Source: Perna viridis (lineage: Eukaryota). Taken from it: 64,000 nucleotides of DNA. The position numbers and the translations under genes are program-made. Of this stretch, positions 45,585 to 57,121 are shown in pieces. The notes beneath the pieces are model-generated. The model had not been told where the DNA came from. It worked only from the letters and a program-made list of their open reading frames with translations, and did not search any database. The DNA lies in NCBI GenBank assembly GCA_037379345.1, contig CM074521.1, forward strand, positions 25,878,704 through 25,942,703. The letters run 5' to 3'. Positions within the stretch are counted from its first letter, which is position 1, and every line of letters starts with the position of its first letter.

Positions 45585-45868
45585 ATTTAAAATAACTGAT
45601 ATATTTCCACAAGAGAAATTATAACAAACAATGACAAATGAATGCTCAAACTTTGCAGTGAATCAAAATTAAAATGAAGTAGAATTACATCCAATGAAAC
45701 ATTGTAACAACACCATAGCACTATTTTTCATAACATGTAATTCTCCTATATTTACAGTGCACAATGTTTCAAATTTTTAACAGGTTACATAAAACAACAG
45801 GCTTGGGCCAGCTTCTTAGTTTATAAATAAAATCTACAATACAAAAACATTTTAAAAAAAAACTTCTC

Positions 45869-48800
45869 CATTGCACCAAACGAACATCAAAGTTTGTAAG
45901 CCAACAAATAACCTGAAAAATCTTAGTAGATAATGACGCAATTGGCAAAGGAAATATACCATCTAGTATGTGATAATTCTTAACTCTACCTATACTTCTT
46001 TCTACATGTATTCTTAATTCTGCTATTTCTTGAGTTTCAAAGACCTCTGTAGTGGAAAATTGTGCAGAAGCACCTCGAAAATAAGGAGTATTCAACGTAC
46101 ACTTTTGTTTTTCTAACAAATCTTTGATAGTAAATCCCTTATCAGCCATAACACTATCACCTTCCTGCAACAATTCTAAAACACCTGATTCCATAGTGAT
46201 CTACCAATCAGATACCTTACCTCCCATCCTTCTGATACAAAAGAAATAACCCCTGGTGGAGTAATTCCAACCAAAAATTTAAAAGTATTATGGTGCTTGT
46301 ATGCAGAAAAAGTATTATACTGATTAATAATGCTGTTTGCTCTCTGCACAAAAATTTCTGTACAGTCTAATATAATTCTAGTAGAAGGATATTTGTTCCT
46401 AAAACTGTTAGGCATGTTTCTATCAATAATTTCTCTAGTAGGAAATGGATTTAAAATTTTCAGTTCATAATGCAGGAGACAAATCCAGGTTGAAAAATAT
46501 CTAGAAAAAGTGCCTGCTGAAATATTAAACCTGTCAGCTATATCTTGAACAAAAAGACCTAATTGAAGTCATCACTACAAAAGTTTTATGGTCGTCATCA
46601 TAAACTCGTGGATCGTTATGGTGTATCCATCTGCACCATGAAAACTGATTTATTCAACGGGTCATGGTTTTCCTTTCCTCGTTTGTCTACCCGGACTTGA
46701 CTTTTTATGAGCAACTCGGCGGGTGTTTCTAGAAAAGCAGAGGACGCTTACCCTACCAGTGCACCTGGTCCATGCTCCCAGTTTTTAGTGGAGTCCGAGT
46801 TGCTCATTTACTTTTGTTACTTTGTATTTATGATTTTAGTTACTTTATGTTCTTTGTTGTGTATGTCTGTTTTCCATGTCTGGTCTTTGTCCCTGGATTA
46901 CATTCTTTTGATTACCGCTATAACCTTGGTTCCCTTGATTACTCTTTAAACGATTAAACGAATCAAAACAGCAAACAACTGGTTCATAAGATCTAAGGAA
47001 CCTTCACTTCGTCTTAACCTGTCCTATTGAGGAGTTCTTGCACCTGTCCAGTAGGTCATTATAGTAGTCTTTGGTAATAGATATCTGAAATAATATGTAA
47101 ATAAACACTACTAAGATTGAATAATATTAGTTCAAACTTTTTTGAGATACAAATTACACAAAGTAGGTATACCTTTATTGTGATGTACAGACAGATGGCG
47201 TTGAGCAACTACTAGACTTATTTTAAACTTTTGTGATTTTGGTAAAAAAACAAATTTAAAAATAGGACGTTAATGAACATTAAATGATACTATGCCATGT
47301 AATGGTTATAAAAGGGGATGGCAAAGTGTTCAAAATGGCCTTACTGAAAGTTCATTAATCAGTTTTCAAGTTATCACCTGGAAACCCTTAAGCACTGACA
47401 GACAAAACTTTTCGCAGGGTTTCGATAGGGTATTAAAATTATGGTACATGTATTGTAAATGCTTTAGGCAACTTTACAACATTTCAAAATAACCACATTT
47501 TTTGTCCATACAATAACTTATTATAATAAAACGATCACAAGGTGCCCATGTTTGAATGTTTATTTTTGTCCTTGGTTCAGAGTTTGACCAAGCTGCAAAG
47601 CCTTGGCATGTAGTGGAAAACAGTTGAAAAAAACAATCTTTCTTTTCGAATTATTTAGAACAAAAAGCTTCAGTTCAATTACAAATTAGAAAAGTAAATG
47701 TCCTCTTTGTTAAATTTTTGCTAAAAATACTATTTTTACTCAACCTTGAAGCACACAAATAATAAATATTTTAATCTGTAATTTTAACAAGCTATGTAGG
47801 CTATGAAATATATTCATTAACAAGTTACTTAGAGCTATGAAAAATATATATTATTTTGCCTATATTATCATTACAGCCTTTTATGTTATACATTGTATAC
47901 AGCTGTAGTAATCAAGATTGTAATGCTTTTTAGACAGCTCCTGTTGTAATTAAATAAATCTTACTTTCCCTGACTCATGCTTTTATCAACAAGATCCAGT
48001 TTGACTGTTACATCAAATCAGTCAAGAATCAACAGCAACTCTGACTTCCATTATTTAAGTAGCAGTCTTTATAAAAATCAGACAGGAGGTGATTCACGTA
48101 CATGTATGTCAAAATGTCATCGAATGCACTTTTTGTTTTTAATATTCAGACCACATAAGCTACAGTCTTAAAATTCCCAACGATGTAAGAACTGTCAAAT
48201 TTGCGAAGCAAAATTTTGGTTGTCCCTCCTTCTGAGACGTTTGTATATATATAACAAGAATAGGTATGATGTATAGGTCAAAGAGACAACCTGGTGCGGT
48301 TTTATTTATATATGTATGAAATTGGCCCTTTGTCAAAGTTATCATTCTTAATTTCGATTGATTTAGTTAAATCTAATGGAAGATGAATGTATGGTTTCCG
48401 AAAAGTACAGATCTAATTTACAAAAGCAACTACCATTAAGTAAAAATATAGGATATATGTAGACTGAAAAACTAATGTTAGTGCAGTGGTTTACAACGAA
48501 AATATCTTCCACCATAAGCAGAGTCTTAATTTTCTACTGAAAGGCCCTTAAATAAAACAAAAACACTTAACATTATACATACTGATAGAGCCACAGGAAA
48601 ACAGCAAAAGATGGTAGTCCAGTATAAGACTTGGTGTTAACATCACTATCTTTAATTTTGTCAGCACTCCATGTGGCCTGTTTTATGTCCTCCTTTACCC
48701 GTTTAAATTCTGCTCTTAGCTCTTCATTTTTCTTAAGAAGCGCATCTTCATCAGTCTGCATACCTGTAAGAAATTTGTCAACATCAATCCCTTCAAAACA

Positions 48801-49219: not shown

Positions 49220-51183
49220 GTTTTTTTTTAAATAAATATACAATACCCTGATATTGAATTGCAATAAATGATTTCTGTAATAAATAAGTACAAATTTGTT
49301 TAATTATAATTTAACCCTATTGTGCCACTCAAAACAAGCTCATGTTTAAAATGGTGTTTGAAGACGACTATCACAGCTGAGAAAGACTCATGATTTAATG
49401 AAAGAGAAAGTCCTGTGAAAATCATTGAGTCTTGCAAAAATAAGTACAAACCATACCAGACACTTTTGACTGCTAGAATGACATCAATTCTAGGTAACAT
49501 GTCCTTTTTACAACATGATTTTCAAAATTACCTTGAAAGTTTCAAAAGAGACATTTTACAAAAGTAGAGTTAAATTGATTCAATCACCCAAGTTAAATTT
49601 TCTCCATCTTCCTATTTTAAAAAGTGGAAAGTTTCCAATCCATCTAAATCAGTTAACTCTAAGGTGGAATAACTCTTTAAAAATATTTTTAATAATATAC
49701 TTTGGTCCTTAAGAACTTAGAGTTCAGTGTCATTGTTTTTGGCAATGACAGTGATGTCATCGTTCTCCAATCCCAAAACTGTTGAATCAATGCCATCAAT
49801 GTGCATGTAATTATGGGCTGTTCTAGAACATATGACAATGAATTTCTTTTGTTCTTTTCTTCTCAATTTTATCCTTAAATGAAAATACTAAAAATATTCA
49901 AAATTGTACAATGACTTTTAGTGGAAGCAATGTTTTTAATCTTCATCTAGCTAATTTTACCTTCTATAACTGGAAAGTCATAAATAAAATAGAAAGCAAA
50001 AACATCCTGGGATATAAGACAATGTTCAGAATTAGTTAGATGTGTTGTCCTCATATTTCTGAAATCATTTATTTATTATTAAATTGACTAAAACTAGTTA
50101 TGAATTGACACTTAGGTAAATATTTTTAAGCAAATCTTTTGAGTTCTTTATGACAAAATTACCAAATAAGATACATGTACCTCCTCCTCTGAAGAGATGA
50201 AATTTTCTAGAATATTACCTTTTCAAACTTTTGTAAGATTATTGTGAGTAAAAAAAATCATATGAGTACCACAAATGGGGTTTACTTCCAATGTCAGGAC
50301 TTTTCCCAACCTGTTAGAAATTGAACTTAATACCAGGAAATACATTAAAAAGATAAATATAAAATTGTGTCACTTACTGTCACATATTTCAAACATAAGA
50401 CCTTTTATGAACTTTCATTCCACAGTTATGTAAACAAACCACTACATGTAAAGTACAGAAGATTAAAGAAATTGTAAATCTTGATATTATGGTCACTTAC
50501 CTTCTAATTCTACTTACCAAGCATTAATTCACACTAAAATGGTACCTTGATTGGCATCATGAACATAACAGGAGGTGATGAAAATGAAAATGCCGTAAAT
50601 GATCAACATAAAGTTTGCTTGAATCAAACCCAAGTCAAACATGAACATTTTTCAGTTACAACAAATCAAAGTAACAGAACACCAGTGATCAATTTCCACA
50701 AAACTAAATAGTTTGTGTAGGTTCATTAAATATTTCAGATCCTAAAGTACAATATATAGATGTGCATTAACCAAAAACCTGGTGTAACAATAGATTTTCA
50801 TTAAATGAAATGTAACTTTGAGGCATAACGATGAACAACTGAAGTTCGCTGTTTTTTTTCTCATTCTTACCTTGAACAGTGCCCTCTTACACATTCTAGT
50901 TTCTCTTGCAAAATCAGACGCTGTGGCCTGTTTCTCCTTGTAGGCAACGACGGTAGGCGTGTAGTTAGGATCTCCAGGTTCATCTCCATGCCAGTTGTCA
51001 ATGAAATGGGCTGAGAAGATGTAACTGGCCTCTGTTGGTGTCCAGTCTGCTCTGTTCAGCGCCTTAATCCACGCTCTTCTTTTCCTCTGGTCTTTAGAGA
51101 AACGGAAAAAAGGATATTCCTTTCTCTTTAGATTCAGAAGTCTGCGTATTAGGGCATTTATACACGCTGCAGGTTCTCACCAT
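45869..51183 (-). pseudogene. Spliced THAP + HTH + DDE_Tnp_4 transposase
   Basis: THAP exon 51183-~50871 (MVRTCSVYKC..W....R.DW.P...IFSAHF...PT, frameshifted). Exon ~48836-48578 (SYTGLPSF). Then LFAVLIRL-KLGL..DIADRF; IILDCTE; YKHHNTFK; VMADKGF; RIHVERSIGRVK. Confidence 0.88.
46562..46950 (+). mobile_element. Naiad-type Penelope-like 3' fragment inserted in the transposase
   Basis: Splits the LIRL|KLGL codons. Near-identical to the reverse complement of 55994-56375. Confidence 0.85.
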
Positions 51184-51488: not shown

Positions 51489-51549
51489 GTGCGCACATCA
51501 ATATAGTTAACCATTTTCAACTTTGGTTTCTCTTTCAAGGAGATTAGAC

Positions 51550-54500
51550 ATGGCAGAATTAAAATTTGATGATATAAAAAAACAGAATTTAATAGCAGTT
51601 TTGTTTGCTCTGGAATGTATTACCGATGTTGTTTATAAATTCTCAGAAGACGAATTCAAAAAACTTCAAGAAAAGATCTTACATTATTTCCAAATCAACA
51701 ACAACACACCGTGCAGTGTTTCATGTAGCTTGAAATACCCGAAGTCCACGAAAAACTGGTGCACAACTTGTAAGGATTGGAAAAATTTAATATTGGACTA
51801 CCATATATGTGGACCAGCCATTGGTGATAAAAGGATTGACTGGACAAAAATAGACTCTTCGAAATGGCCAACTGATCAGACGGAGATTGCGAAATGTTTT
51901 AGTCCACCTTTAGGCAGGGGTGTTGGCCAAAACCATATCGAAGATGACCTATCGGTAATCATCGGAAGAATTATTAACTGTAGAGAGTTACGAAATCTCT
52001 TTCATAACAATCCCCCTTTGACATCCTCAGTTGATCCCGATGAAATACGGATAATAAGGAACAATATACACCATGGTCCAAATGAGTTATCGACCGACGT
52101 TAAAAACGACCATTTTAAAAAGCTAATGGCTTTTATTCAAATGCCATGTCTATGGGTCTATCAGGAAGCAAGAGATGCTTTTAATAAAATTCAAATTTTT
52201 AAAATGAAAAACTATCAAGATATCATTAAAGAAAAAGTTATTGACGAACACGAAATGAGGAAAATGGAAAATAGAATAACACAAAACTGGACAAAATGCT
52301 ACAATATATCGATTGTATCTATTGCTCTGGTGATTATTTTGGTATTACTTCCTCTAGTTATAATGCTGATTCAGCAAGTGTTCGATTTACTGTACTATGC
52401 CACTGAAAGGTTTAAATACGGTCATGAACGAGGCGCAGTTGCGAACAAATTGGTCGACAGCAGGGAAAACAATAGCAACATTTCTACAGTGTCACTACTG
52501 GTCTTGGTTATTCTGTTGTTAGTACCACTTGTAATTCTAAGCCTTAGGGAGCTCAAGAAAACTCGATATTATGTATATGTCGAGATCTTCTTTGAAAGAC
52601 TGTTCATGAAGTCTGCGTGGCGCGGTAAGTAGTAAAAAAATAAACATTAATACATGCATTTGTGTATTTTTAGCATACCCACAATGTTTGGGGGTATAAA
52701 GGAATGACCCTGACTGTCTATTCGTCTGTCCACATTTCTTGAGTGTGCAACGACACCTAAACTCAAGGAATTTTGATGAAAATATAGAGGAAGAGGAAGG
52801 TTGCACATGAATATCTTTTAGATGTGAATGAAGAATTCAAAGTGAGATAAGCGTAATTAAATTCGATATTCTCTTCGTGAGCCTTGTCGCCGTATTTATA
52901 GTTATAATATATTTTTCAAAAGTTTTTTTTTTCATCAATATTTCACTAATTCTTTTCTGTAACTAAATAAATATAATCGATATGGTTCCGTTATATATGT
53001 AGATGGCATTTAAAAGAAATTAAAATTTCCGGAAAATGTTTATTTTCAAGTACCATATGATCCTCCTCTCGTTGTTTAGAATAAGTATAAAATTGAGATG
53101 AAGACATAAAAGGTTTATTTTTCAGATAAGTTGCATTTTATTGAATTCTTGTATGCTTGCATAAGGTGTTGTAGTAAAAAAATAAACAGATATGTCTATA
53201 TGAATGGAATGCCTACCTGCTTATTTTTTACATATTTTCAGGAAAACAAATTAAAGGTGTTATGTTTGTCAAAAGAGAAGAGTGGGGGGCGGAGAAACCA
53301 AAACCACCAGAGCAAATGCCAAGTCCAGTTGGAAACGTCTTTGTACACCACACAGGTGGACCATTCTATGAGGACGAGGAAGGATGTAGTCAGAGGGTCA
53401 AGTATATTCAATACACGCACATGGAAGGCAATAGTAAGTTTTCTCAACACTAGATAGAGATGTTGTAATGGTAATGGACGGCTTGCAAATAGCATTGTTT
53501 TCAGAAACAAGGAAAGGGGATGCCGACTTTCCTTAAAGGGGCTCCAGTGATTTCCAGTGACTTTCTATATAATTAATCGACCAAAATTTTCCGGGAGGGA
53601 AATGGGTTTTAAATCATCTTCCTCCTTCAACGACCAAACCGTGTTATCAATTTCTTCACAATCACTTCTCTCGTTTGAGAGAAACTTAATTTATGGATTA
53701 GAATAGTCTAGTATGTGTCGGTGAAACACAAGAACGATTAAACAAAAGAATGTGCGGTCATCGTTCGGGAATTAATACCAAATTCTATCTTAGGGAAAGA
53801 GAGGAGTACTGGATACGCAGACTAGGTACTGCAATACCTTACGGATGCAATGAGAACATCAAAAGTATAGGAAACTTTCAAGCCAATATAACAATAGCAT
53901 AAATGTGATGAATTTATTTGACAAAAATCCAAGACGGGAAAGGAGTCATGGCCATCGCCACTATACGTCATCTAAGTTGCATAATGTCTCCATAGATGGT
54001 CTCCTTCCTTTCTTATAAAAAACCTCTTGGACTTCATCACATTAGAATCAAACTCTATTCTATACCTCTTACTCTACTACACTCCCTTTACAAAACAGGT
54101 CTTGATACTCCTGTTTCTGAACCTATCTCATCATTATACAGACTTGTTGCCTTCATTTTGGATATTGGTTTCCACAGACTCTTTAAACTAGTTTGTGTGA
54201 AAAGTCAAGATGAAGAAAAACGATCATTTCTTTCACTACCGTTTCTCAAAAAACGTATAGATGCAATTAATTTGGCTAACATCCTCCATCACAAAAACGT
54301 TACCAACAAAATTCCACCATATTTCAAAGACAAATCCATACCAATTATTTCATATTCCTATACTTTACCTATTGGATCCAAAATTTTCAATTGTAAAAGG
54401 TTATTGCAGAACCTCGAGATTGAGGACTTCAAGGCTAAACCACCTGGCTATTCTTGCAAAAACTCTCCATTCAAATATGGTCCTTCCGGTCACGTCGTTA

Positions 54501-57121
54501 CGGGAGATTTAACCATCATCGAAAACGAATCTCTGCGTAATATCTTTTCTAAAGGTCCCAAGTACCTTAAACCACGTTCCATAAATTGAAATTATAACTT
54601 CTTATGGATGCCGTGGAGGACTACGCAAGAAAATGGACAAAACGAGAACATGAAGACACCGATTCTCTATCAGAGTGGTTAAAGGCCGTGAAGTCTTTAA
54701 TTTTGAAACGAATGAAAGTTTTAAGTAGGTCAATGAGTGCCAATGCTACATCAGTTTTCCAAGACCCCGATGTAGCAAAACCATTGTCTACTATACATGA
54801 CAAATACATTGTCGTACCAGCAGAAAAAGCCCAAAACTACACTGTTATGTCTGCAAAACGTTTTACATCCAATGTCTATCAGAGGTAGACGTAGAATATA
54901 ATAGCAGTGATAAGACCTATACTGCTATAACACTCTCCAAAGAAGAGATTGTGGAAAACCATAAAACTGTGCTACCCTCCTTTCTTTTGGTCTCTCTACC
55001 AAGGATGATGATTGTGATTTACCGTCTATGTACTGGATTCCTATACTCCACAAAAATCCATACAAATAACGTCACATAGTTGAATCTGCAAAATGTACCA
55101 CCAAACCTCTTTCCAAACTTTTAACTTCTATACTCACAGCTGTCAAAGAGGGTCTGCAGTCCTACTATAACACTTGTTACTCCCGTCGTGATATTAATTC
55201 TTCTTCTTGTTGAGTACAAAACCATCACCTGGTGTATCCTCGTAATGGTTGGCGACTATATACAAAAGTGATCGGTGCTGGAAGGACCCAAGGTACAAGT
55301 TAAAATCCATATTTACTGTGCAGCTAAAAACGAGGATGTGTTGTTTATCTCAGACTGGTGGATTGCAACTTACTCTTGAACGATTCCAAGGAGTTACAGG
55401 CTATCACTTGTTGAGGAAGTTGGTTACAGATTCTGATTGAGTCGGGAAAGAATGACGGTTTGTAACAGGAGGATCGGGCATATGGCACCAAGAATCTCTG
55501 GTAGTGGCCTCTAACATTCACTGCAGCTGGTGTGAGATATGTAGCTGGGATGTCTACCAAGTTGTTGACAATCTTGAACATCATAACGGCCTTGGCTTGG
55601 GCTCTACGTTCCTGGAGTGTTGTCCAACTCAGGTTGTTAAGCATGGTGGTAACACTGCTTGTCGTTTTGTAGTCGCCATATACAAATCTAGCGGACCTGC
55701 GTTGTTCTTGGCGGTATGAAGGTCCCATATTACATTCCCATATTCCATGATTTGTCGCACCAATGTAGTGTAGCACAGCTCCTTGGTCTTCTTATGGCAG
55801 GCATACGGGTCTCTTTGAAGAAAGGCACGGGTGTAGTTTGTCTCTTTGGCGACTTGATCTATATGTCCATTCCAATTCATCTGATGATGGATATTCAAAC
55901 CTAAATACTTTGCTGTTTCTACCACTTCTAGCTGATGGCCATGGATGGAGTATGGTTCTTTCAGTGGTTTTCTCTTTGTTGTTACATGTGAAAGGGTAAT
56001 CAAGGGAACCAAGGTTATAGCGGTAATCAAAAGAATGTAATCCAGGGACAAAGACCAGACATGGAAAACAGACATACACAACAAAGAACATAAAGTAACT
56101 AAAATCATACATACAAAGTAACAAAAGCAAATGAGCAACTCGGACTACACTAAAACTGGGAGCATGGACCAGGTGCACCGGTAGGGTAAGCGTCCTCTGC
56201 TTTTCTAGAAACACCCGCCGAGTTCCTCATAAAAAATCAAGTCCGGGGTAGACAAACGAGGAAAGCAGACTATGACCCGTTGAATAAATCAGTTTTCATG
56301 GTGCAGATGGATACACCATAACGATCCACGAGTTCATGATGACGACCATAAAACTTCTGTAGTGATAACTTCAATCTTGTAGCAATATAACCCTGTTCAA
56401 GAAGCATATTTTTTAGAGTTCAAGCGCGATACAAAACGTCTGTGTAGTTTCGGCAAGCTCTAGCATAACGTATGAGTTGTGATATGAACACTGCATATGC
56501 AGGTGCCGAGGGGATGTTGCAACAGATGAAAGAACATTTTACAATTCTGAATGAAAAGTTATCACGTTTGTCGTAAAGTTTGGTCAGTTGTTTTCCTTTA
56601 CAATCGATTTCTAAGTGTAGGTCAAGATATGAGGCTGACTTGACAGTGTCTGTAGTATCCTTTATCTCAAGTTCTTTTGGGTAGATGCGATGTACCAAAT
56701 CCCGAAATTTGGATTGTTTAAAGATAATGCGTCATCTATATGTTATGTTAAAGTTTTAGTATTTGAAGTGCAACTTCTACTCTTTTTTTTAGAATGGGAC
56801 GATATTGCATATAACTTTGTTATCGGAGAAGATGGTCGAGTATATGAGGGCAGAGGCTGGAACACCGTTGGAGCACACACCTTAGGGTGGAACAAAAATT
56901 CAATATGTTTTGCATTCATTGGTGACTACAATGAGAGATCCCCAAACCACAGAGCAATACAAGCTTTAGAAAACGCTCTAGAATGGGGTGTTAAAAACGG
57001 AAAGTTAACAGCCAACTATATCCTATACGGACATTGTGACAAGCGTAGCACGGACAGCCCGGGGAGATACTTGTATGCTATTATTAGATATTTTAAACAC
57101 TACCACAAGAAACAGATTTAA
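51550..57121 (+). CDS. CXorf38/DUF4559-like HEPN domain - 2 TM - peptidoglycan recognition protein (PGRP) fusion; exons 51550-52624, 53242-53433, 56793-57121
   Basis: Both introns are phase 1 and join in frame: CGC G|gtaagt...ttttcag|GA gives WRGKQIKGVMFVKREEWGA, and AAT A|gtaagt...ttttag|AA gives [28 protein letters not shown]. N-terminal motif series CxxCxxWKxxILxxH..IDW..KWP.D..EIAK.F..RNNIHH. Confidence 0.85.
53700..55197 (+). mobile_element. Naiad-type Penelope-like element 5' part (GIY-YIG upstream of RT), decayed, in PGRP intron 2
   Basis: VGETQERLNKRMCGHRS..REREEYWIRRLGT..PYGCN, then GHVVTGDL..KGPKY, VVPAEKA, LPSMYWIP.LHKNP. Confidence 0.8.
55198..55993 (-). mobile_element. 3' end of a non-LTR retrotransposon (CR1/L2-like)
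   Basis: KYLGLNI..W..HI; CYTTLVR.IMEY; LSWTTLQERR..MMFKIVN; SFFP.SIR..NQLP; ends in a (GAA)n tail. Confidence 0.8.
55994..56700 (-). mobile_element. Naiad-type Penelope-like 3' part (RT C-terminus plus tail)
   Basis: IYPKELEIKDTTD..SASYLDLHLEID..LYDKRD.FSF..NIPSAPAY.VFISQLIRYARAC. Confidence 0.87.

Follow-up and report, generated by a model that had tools for sequence, protein, structure and literature searches.

The window, meaning the whole 64,000-nucleotide stretch of Perna viridis DNA analysed here, contains a plus-strand gene of three exons encoding a protein of 531 amino acids (aa) without internal stops. The protein joins a HEPN-like domain, two transmembrane (TM) helices and a PGRP domain, laid out as follows in positions of the window:

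51493..51549, + strand: 5' untranslated leader, continuous with exon 1 (record 3 of the run X5 contigs covers 51493-52623)
51550..52624, + strand: coding exon 1 (aa 1-359), with the HEPN-like domain, both TM helices and the juxtamembrane helix; donor confirmed by reads
51565..52287, + strand: DUF4559/CXorf38-like HEPN domain (aa 6-246), PF15112 E 5.6e-17, with a Cys/His insert of zinc-ribbon type
51946..51948, + strand: acidic residue D133, invariant in 16/16 rows, candidate counterpart of CXorf38 D134
52057..52074, + strand: HEPN catalytic-type motif R170-N-N-I-H-H175 (R-phi-x-x-x-H), with R170, N171 and H175 invariant in 16/16 rows
52306..52371, + strand: TM1, the first copy (aa 253-274), KD19 3.34, a helix in the AF2 model and a predicted type II signal-anchor
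52372..52485, + strand: loop (aa 275-312) with N307 and N310 near TM2, predicted luminal and of low conservation (35-40% identity)
52486..52545, + strand: TM2, the second copy (aa 313-332), KD19 3.21, predicted stop-transfer, 74-87% identity among long-loop relatives
52546..52602, + strand: basic RELKKTR and juxtamembrane helix (aa 333-351), an ancestral flank with KD19 0.22 and no third TM
53242..53433, + strand: coding exon 2, PGRP domain (first half); reads of X21-X23 and the X5 contig show its GT-AG joints
53367..53387, + strand: lost-disulfide site, Y401...C407 replacing C-x5-C; the bridge is Cys48-Cys54 of PGRP-SA
56793..57121, + strand: coding exon 3, PGRP domain (second half, with Y429, R443 in YEGRGW, H503 and S511) and stop codon

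Both introns have GT-AG ends and are spliced out in all three raw-read RNA runs as well as in contigs of run X5. The first joint is crossed by 1, 7 and 14 reads in the three raw runs and the second by 8, 16 and 20, and the reads covering the exons are of low depth and nearly all in the same direction. The initial annotation had noted that a signal peptide is absent, and the transcript bears this out: an unbroken contig runs from 51493 through the ATG to the first donor, with an in-frame TAA at 51508-51510 upstream of the ATG, so this transcript carries no exon for a signal peptide. An additional 5' exon could join at an acceptor-like sequence 10 bases upstream of the ATG, although none appears among the joints listed. 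An isoform splicing out after TM1 is likewise not among the joints listed for the RNA runs on the window; seven GT sites follow TM1 as cryptic donors, the best with 5/9 consensus matches, and a single one (52421) is in phase.

Other features surround this gene. Intron 2 (53434-56792) contains repeat-derived pieces, some of which (55686-56807) have very deep RNA coverage that stems from other copies. A divergent THAP-domain frame occupies 50742-51176 on the minus strand; its start and the point where the PGRP transcript begins are about 370 bases apart, and a promoter shared by the two is possible. Fragments of DDE_Tnp_4 and HTH_Tnp_4 at 45769-46568 (minus strand) suggest a Harbinger-like element. 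Further away, a stop-free plus-strand frame of 5143 aa at 553-15984 (2288 Thr, 1183 Gly and 635 Pro, with TGPTT repeats) forms a mucin-like exon, followed downstream on the same strand by a TSP1 exon (26779-27132) and a DAN/cystine-knot exon (30524-30895); these three may belong to one gene.

The N-terminal domain matches the DUF4559 profile PF15112 at 62.6 bits (cut-off 27), a family that we take to be that of CXorf38. Its zinc-ribbon insert carries C55, C59, C74 and H85, all invariant in the aligned relatives, and we infer that these residues bind zinc. A 2013 survey counts CXorf38 among the active HEPN families and notes a zinc ribbon inserted in it (PMC3710099). The HEPN motif is given as R-phi-xxx-H in a 2026 preprint, which proposes a His-Asp dyad for CXorf38 (D134) (10.64898/2026.05.28.728550), and D133 of the window protein is the putative equivalent of this Asp. 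The available text of these two sources (PMC3710099; 10.64898/2026.05.28.728550) reports no RNase activity for the CXorf38 family, and the survey's main text, as far as available, never mentions PGRP. In structural comparison, the AF2 model of exon 1 (mean pLDDT 75.7) was matched best by VIA-align to the Swt1 C-terminal domain 4pqz (Z 6.1, 124 aligned residues, rmsd 3.7), with further matches to Csm6 (Z 4.9) and AF_0298 (Z 4.5); helical bundles can reach all of these scores by chance, and the modelled likeness to Swt1 is no more than suggestive of a HEPN fold. Foldseek gave no match at E 0.001. The Atlas places the domain in mixed HEPN_DZIP3/DUF4559 clusters that are mostly molluscan (feature-based agreement of 0.95-0.96) and holds no usable match for P0004, a Mytilus galloprovincialis relative. 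The prediction of a HEPN homodimer (score 0.17, mark 0.32) weighs neither way, and the full-length AF2 model of P0004 (mean pLDDT 62, TM and PGRP regions mostly below 50) was set aside.

Between the HEPN-like and PGRP domains, the initial annotation had pointed to two similar hydrophobic segments 58 aa apart and read them as an internal duplication. Both segments are encoded in one exon, with N252 starting at 52303 and N310 at 52477. They share 12/23 residues without a gap, a local score matched by 0/20,000 shuffles, and shuffling the hydrophobic core only still gave p=0.003 for the score and p=0.011 for identity, so the repeat exceeds what shared composition would yield. At the DNA level, 38/69 positions are identical, falling to 6/23 at third positions, and blastn between the copies found no real match; the duplication is thus old. 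Hydropathy reaches KD19 maxima of 3.34 (aa 256-274) and 3.21 (aa 314-332), and the sole further peak of 1.63 is an N-terminal helix within DUF4559. A third span is absent, as KD19 peaks at -0.45 in the loop, 0.22 in the helix after TM2 and 0.58 in the PGRP domain, and by this measure the protein has two TM-grade segments, neither one nor three. The AF2 model of aa 253-337 resembles two-helix hairpins such as that of cytochrome oxidase subunit II (Z ~6, low pLDDT).

The C-terminal domain belongs to the PGRP family, as exon 3 alone matches PF01510 (Amidase_2) at 58.9 bits (cut-off 26, E 8.6e-16). In amidase PGRPs, the zinc-binding and catalytic set consists of His, Tyr, His, Thr and Cys (PMC8347126). 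The window protein keeps H394, Y429, H503 and T509, with S511 (in DSPG) at the position of the zinc Cys, and hence lacks the full residue set of a catalytic amidase. Since Ser replaces the zinc Cys as in PGRP-LCx, the domain is predicted to be a non-catalytic sensor. R443 in YEGRGW corresponds to a residue of LCx and LE, presumably Arg254 in PGRP-LE. An Arg in the binding groove is described as not decisive for DAP preference (PMC8347126). The protein ends in KKQI (57107-57118, plus strand), which is missing from 6/6 relatives compared and on which no weight is placed. This ending presumably fits a di-lysine ER-retrieval motif, functional only on cytosolic tails.

Exon 1 has four matches in the genome (723 Mb, 46 contigs). 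One of these, L002 (contig C7), shares the layout but with one TM, and its intron positions match according to a predicted spliced model. No PGRP was found next to the other two matches in the stretches examined. The DUF4559-like gene L003/L020 (G000:C12:26630788-26631453) stops shortly past the domain; it shows no clear TM, and a PGRP was not found within 9 kb. L004 (G000:C5) is a DUF4559-like gene with a variant RNRYFGH motif and a TM-like segment. Those relatives that bear names are Mytilus proteins, and the family falls into three types. The single-TM type, found both in this genome and in Mytilus, comprises L002, P0182, P0163, P0155, P0039 and P0185; in P0182 and P0163 only, the second His of HHT is Asn (HNTA). 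The two-TM type with a long loop of ~38 residues comprises the window protein, P0002 and P0003. The two-TM type with a short loop of ~6 residues comprises P0004 (M. galloprovincialis PGRP-1), P0158, P0181 and P0068, and its TM2 is moderately hydrophobic (KD19 2.3-2.6). In Mytilus, short-loop and single-TM genes have adjacent gene ids, and one gene model, P0159, is fused.

In the single-TM forms, the one TM is preceded by the flank that lies ahead of TM1 (CYNISI) and followed by the flank that lies behind TM2 (ELxKTxY), the pattern that descent of both copies from a single TM would produce. In a tree of TM units, the two long-loop copies group together (support 70/90), and they score 54 on average against one another, versus 31 against the matching short-loop copies. 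PGRP-1 possibly stems from a separate duplication (support 70/90). A single origin of the two-TM forms was not rejected with either the HEPN domain (p-AU 0.456, from a tree omitting P0085, the outgroup P0152 and the near-duplicate P0158) or the TM unit (p-AU 0.358), and the two-TM forms may go back to one duplication event. An earlier test that rejected a single two-TM clade (AU p 0.0005) was discarded, as the shortened P0085 nests in the short-loop group and had been forced out.

Evidence on the side of the membrane that the PGRP domain faces comes from its cysteines and sequon. The disulfides of PGRP-SA are Cys48-Cys54 and Cys11-Cys134, and a C48A mutant of this secreted protein was not expressed (PMC515366). 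In the window protein, Y401 takes the place of the first Cys of C-x5-C and neither Cys of the second bridge is present, so that it lacks the two disulfides of a secreted or surface PGRP. The same division runs through the relatives. All six single-TM mytilid rows keep C-x5-C, an N-T-S sequon and a Cys pair for the second bridge, the last offset by one residue in L002. By contrast, the first Cys of C-x5-C and the sequon are missing from 11/11 two-TM rows, and in all ten two-TM rows that extend to helix 3, the second-bridge Cys of that helix is missing from its place. These rows represent two lineages against two, a contrast strong in kind and small in number. The first-bridge Cys was replaced differently in the two, by Tyr in long-loop and by Gly in short-loop forms, and the orphaned N-terminal Cys is either Cys or Ser among Mytilus short-loop sequences. 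For background, C-x5-C is kept in 204/224 PGRP domains (141 proteins from the best 150 matches). Among these 141 proteins, it is lost in 4/95 with a leader or TM versus 6/33 with neither (Fisher p 0.018), and in 4/13 fragments. The marker is one-sided, as 27/33 PGRPs without leader or TM still keep the cysteines.

The single-TM forms are likely ancestral, since they hold the common PGRP state in which C-x5-C is kept. The opposite course, in which a two-TM ancestor gave rise to single-TM forms by recombination between the repeats, would leave an identical flank pattern, and the trees, being unrooted, do not distinguish gain from loss of a TM copy. It would also require two bridges and a sequon to be regained, in forms whose state is that of 204/224 PGRP domains. 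A related reading is that the two-TM PGRP is decaying and no longer binds, as the loss of Cys48 or Cys54 destroys secreted PGRP-SA (PMC515366). Decay is unlikely, since identity between the window protein and P0002 is 72% in the PGRP domain versus 66% in HEPN, and the PGRP domain is the better conserved in 7/8 pairs, both two-TM pairs included; dN/dS against L002 was uninformative, with synonymous sites saturated. Taken together, reversed history or decay is very unlikely. The history proposed in the initial annotation, a single-TM ancestor with an extracellular PGRP that was flipped by the duplication, is instead supported by the single-TM paralogues, which retain both disulfide and sequon.

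The annotation had further proposed an N-in/C-in hairpin with the PGRP facing the cytosol, and the loss of the first bridge and sequon only in two-TM forms argues for such a topology. Two of the grounds originally offered do not carry over, although the residues themselves are all present. RELKKTR (aa 333-339) does follow TM2, but the similar KEFKKT follows the single TM of L002, and the short-loop TM2 is followed by one Lys. The loop does contain the N-x-S sequons N307 and N310, but these lie 3-7 residues from TM2, and N310-I-S is the duplicate of N252-I-S. Glycosylation needs a sequon at least 12-14 residues from the membrane, so both are too near TM2 to be used.

The PGRP domain would still lie outside or in the lumen if only one helix spanned the membrane, or if a third segment did. 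The basic flank after TM2, inherited from single-TM forms, is uninformative in this respect, and the bridge is lost also in the 4/95 leader- or TM-bearing PGRPs (best 150 matches). Moreover, a two-TM PGRP that retains secretory marks is known from another mollusc: EsPGRP4 of Euprymna scolopes has two TMs and is described with the zinc residues of an amidase (PMC10844198). Like the window protein it spans the membrane twice, but it has no N-terminal domain and retains the two disulfides as well as the sequons; an outward-facing PGRP is therefore likely, and TM number alone does not fix the side of the PGRP. EsPGRP4, however, has 4 residues ahead of its first TM, compared with a folded domain of 250 residues here. 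Both helices of the window protein exceed KD19 3.2 with no third segment above 0.6, and the joint loss of two bridges and the sequon is confined to two-TM forms. An outside or luminal PGRP is accordingly a distinctly unlikely arrangement. Judged from the sequences, the TM duplication likely moved the sensor from the exterior of the cell to its interior.

How such a protein might act can be outlined in steps. The N-terminal domain of 250 residues would fold in the cytosol, with TM1 serving as signal-anchor and TM2 as stop-transfer, and both termini very probably remain cytosolic. The PGRP domain probably binds peptidoglycan without cutting it, likely of the DAP type given R443, with invading bacteria, symbionts or muropeptides leaked from phagosomes as potential sources. 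Ligand binding clusters receptors in PGRP-LE and PGRP-LC. By the same means, the ligand would bring two RNxxxH motifs together, and on balance we favour a composite RNase whose cleavage of RNA leads to shutdown or death of the cell. In the single-TM paralogue, the same chain of events would start from peptidoglycan outside the cell or in vesicle lumens, in which case one effector would watch two compartments.

Alternatively, the PGRP could be cytosolic and the protein serve as a regulator or scaffold, either through HEPN partner binding in an IMD/NF-kB-like pathway or with the two-TM copy damping or tuning its single-TM paralogue. The two kinds of gene do co-occur in this genome, as they do under adjacent ids, and in the fused model P0159, in Mytilus. 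In the 2026 preprint, CXorf38 is modelled in a partly occluded or autoinhibited state (10.64898/2026.05.28.728550), and the nearest solved fold, Swt1 HEPN, comes from a family described as possibly inactive (PMC3710099). Against this, R-N-x-x-x-H and D133 are invariant in both two-TM lineages, a conservation not expected of an inert scaffold or decoy, making this role somewhat unlikely. The reading towards which we lean, from sequence comparison, is that a peptidoglycan receptor of the cell surface became, through a duplication, a cytosolic sensor still tethered to the membrane, and that its clustering would trigger the predicted HEPN RNase. It could be speculated further, with more doubt than confidence, that mussels possess a PGRP-gated HEPN RNase that was flipped twice independently and shed its disulfides, and that guards both sides of the membrane and may replace NOD-type sensing.

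The feature itself is real, and in the literature searched it is a combination of known parts in an unreported arrangement. The papers searched contain no description of a HEPN-PGRP fusion or of a flip by TM duplication, and mollusc papers naming both HEPN and PGRP discuss the two separately in the text available. Membrane-bound mussel PGRPs were already known (PMC3308963), and the sequence of PGRP-1 is deposited in GenBank. If true, the proposed flip would be a natural, polarised example of a receptor switching compartment via one small duplication, with the expected after-effects, the loss of disulfides and of a glycan site, visible beside unflipped sister genes. The protein is also a candidate means by which bivalves detect intracellular bacteria, an issue that an immune survey of Mytilus edulis leaves unanswered (PMC3308963). 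In addition, it gives the CXorf38 HEPN family, to which a human gene belongs, a defined candidate trigger, peptidoglycan, for RNase assays.

Among known systems, the closest are M. galloprovincialis PGRP-1 (AJQ21530.1, P0004) and its neighbours LOC143063982 and LOC127728091, which share with the window protein DUF4559, the TM or TMs, and a PGRP domain in which the zinc Cys is Ser. PGRP-1 and its single-TM neighbours are annotated merely as PGRP or uncharacterized. Identity between PGRP-1 and the window protein is 46% in HEPN and 62% in PGRP; the loop of PGRP-1 has ~6 residues compared with 38, and its disulfide Cys is replaced by Gly rather than Tyr.

Two Drosophila PGRPs offer further comparison. 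PGRP-LC is the best PDB match to the PGRP of P0002 (2f2l, E 1.6e-42) and has in common with the mussel domain the Ser at the zinc-Cys position and the Arg of YEGRGW. Its layout, a single TM with the PGRP outside, is that of the paralogue L002 and not of the two-TM window protein. PGRP-LC also keeps C-x5-C, which the window protein lacks, and it signals through Imd via a RHIM-like motif, whereas the N-terminus of the window protein is a HEPN domain, followed by two TMs. PGRP-LE (2cb3) is non-catalytic and lacks both C-x5-C cysteines, resembling the lost bridge of the window PGRP; it is not known to have a TM anchor and, unlike the window protein, has no HEPN domain. It is described as an intracellular sensor (PMC3308963), and the loss of the bridge in PGRP-LE and in the window lineage is convergent.

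Finally, the pairing of a HEPN-type R-phi-xxx-H domain with a sensing module, and the predicted activation by pairing, place the protein alongside the CXorf38 HEPN family and the KEN-type Ire1 and RNase L, with the difference that Ire1 has a luminal sensor and a kinase. A comparable fusion is seen in Lingula anatina XP_013386931.1 (P0119), which consists of HEPN, one TM and a PGRP that retains C-x5-C. The HEPN of P0119 is of the DZIP3 type (PF18738) rather than DUF4559, and this fusion is thus probably separate, which suggests that the pairing of sensor and RNase arose more than once.
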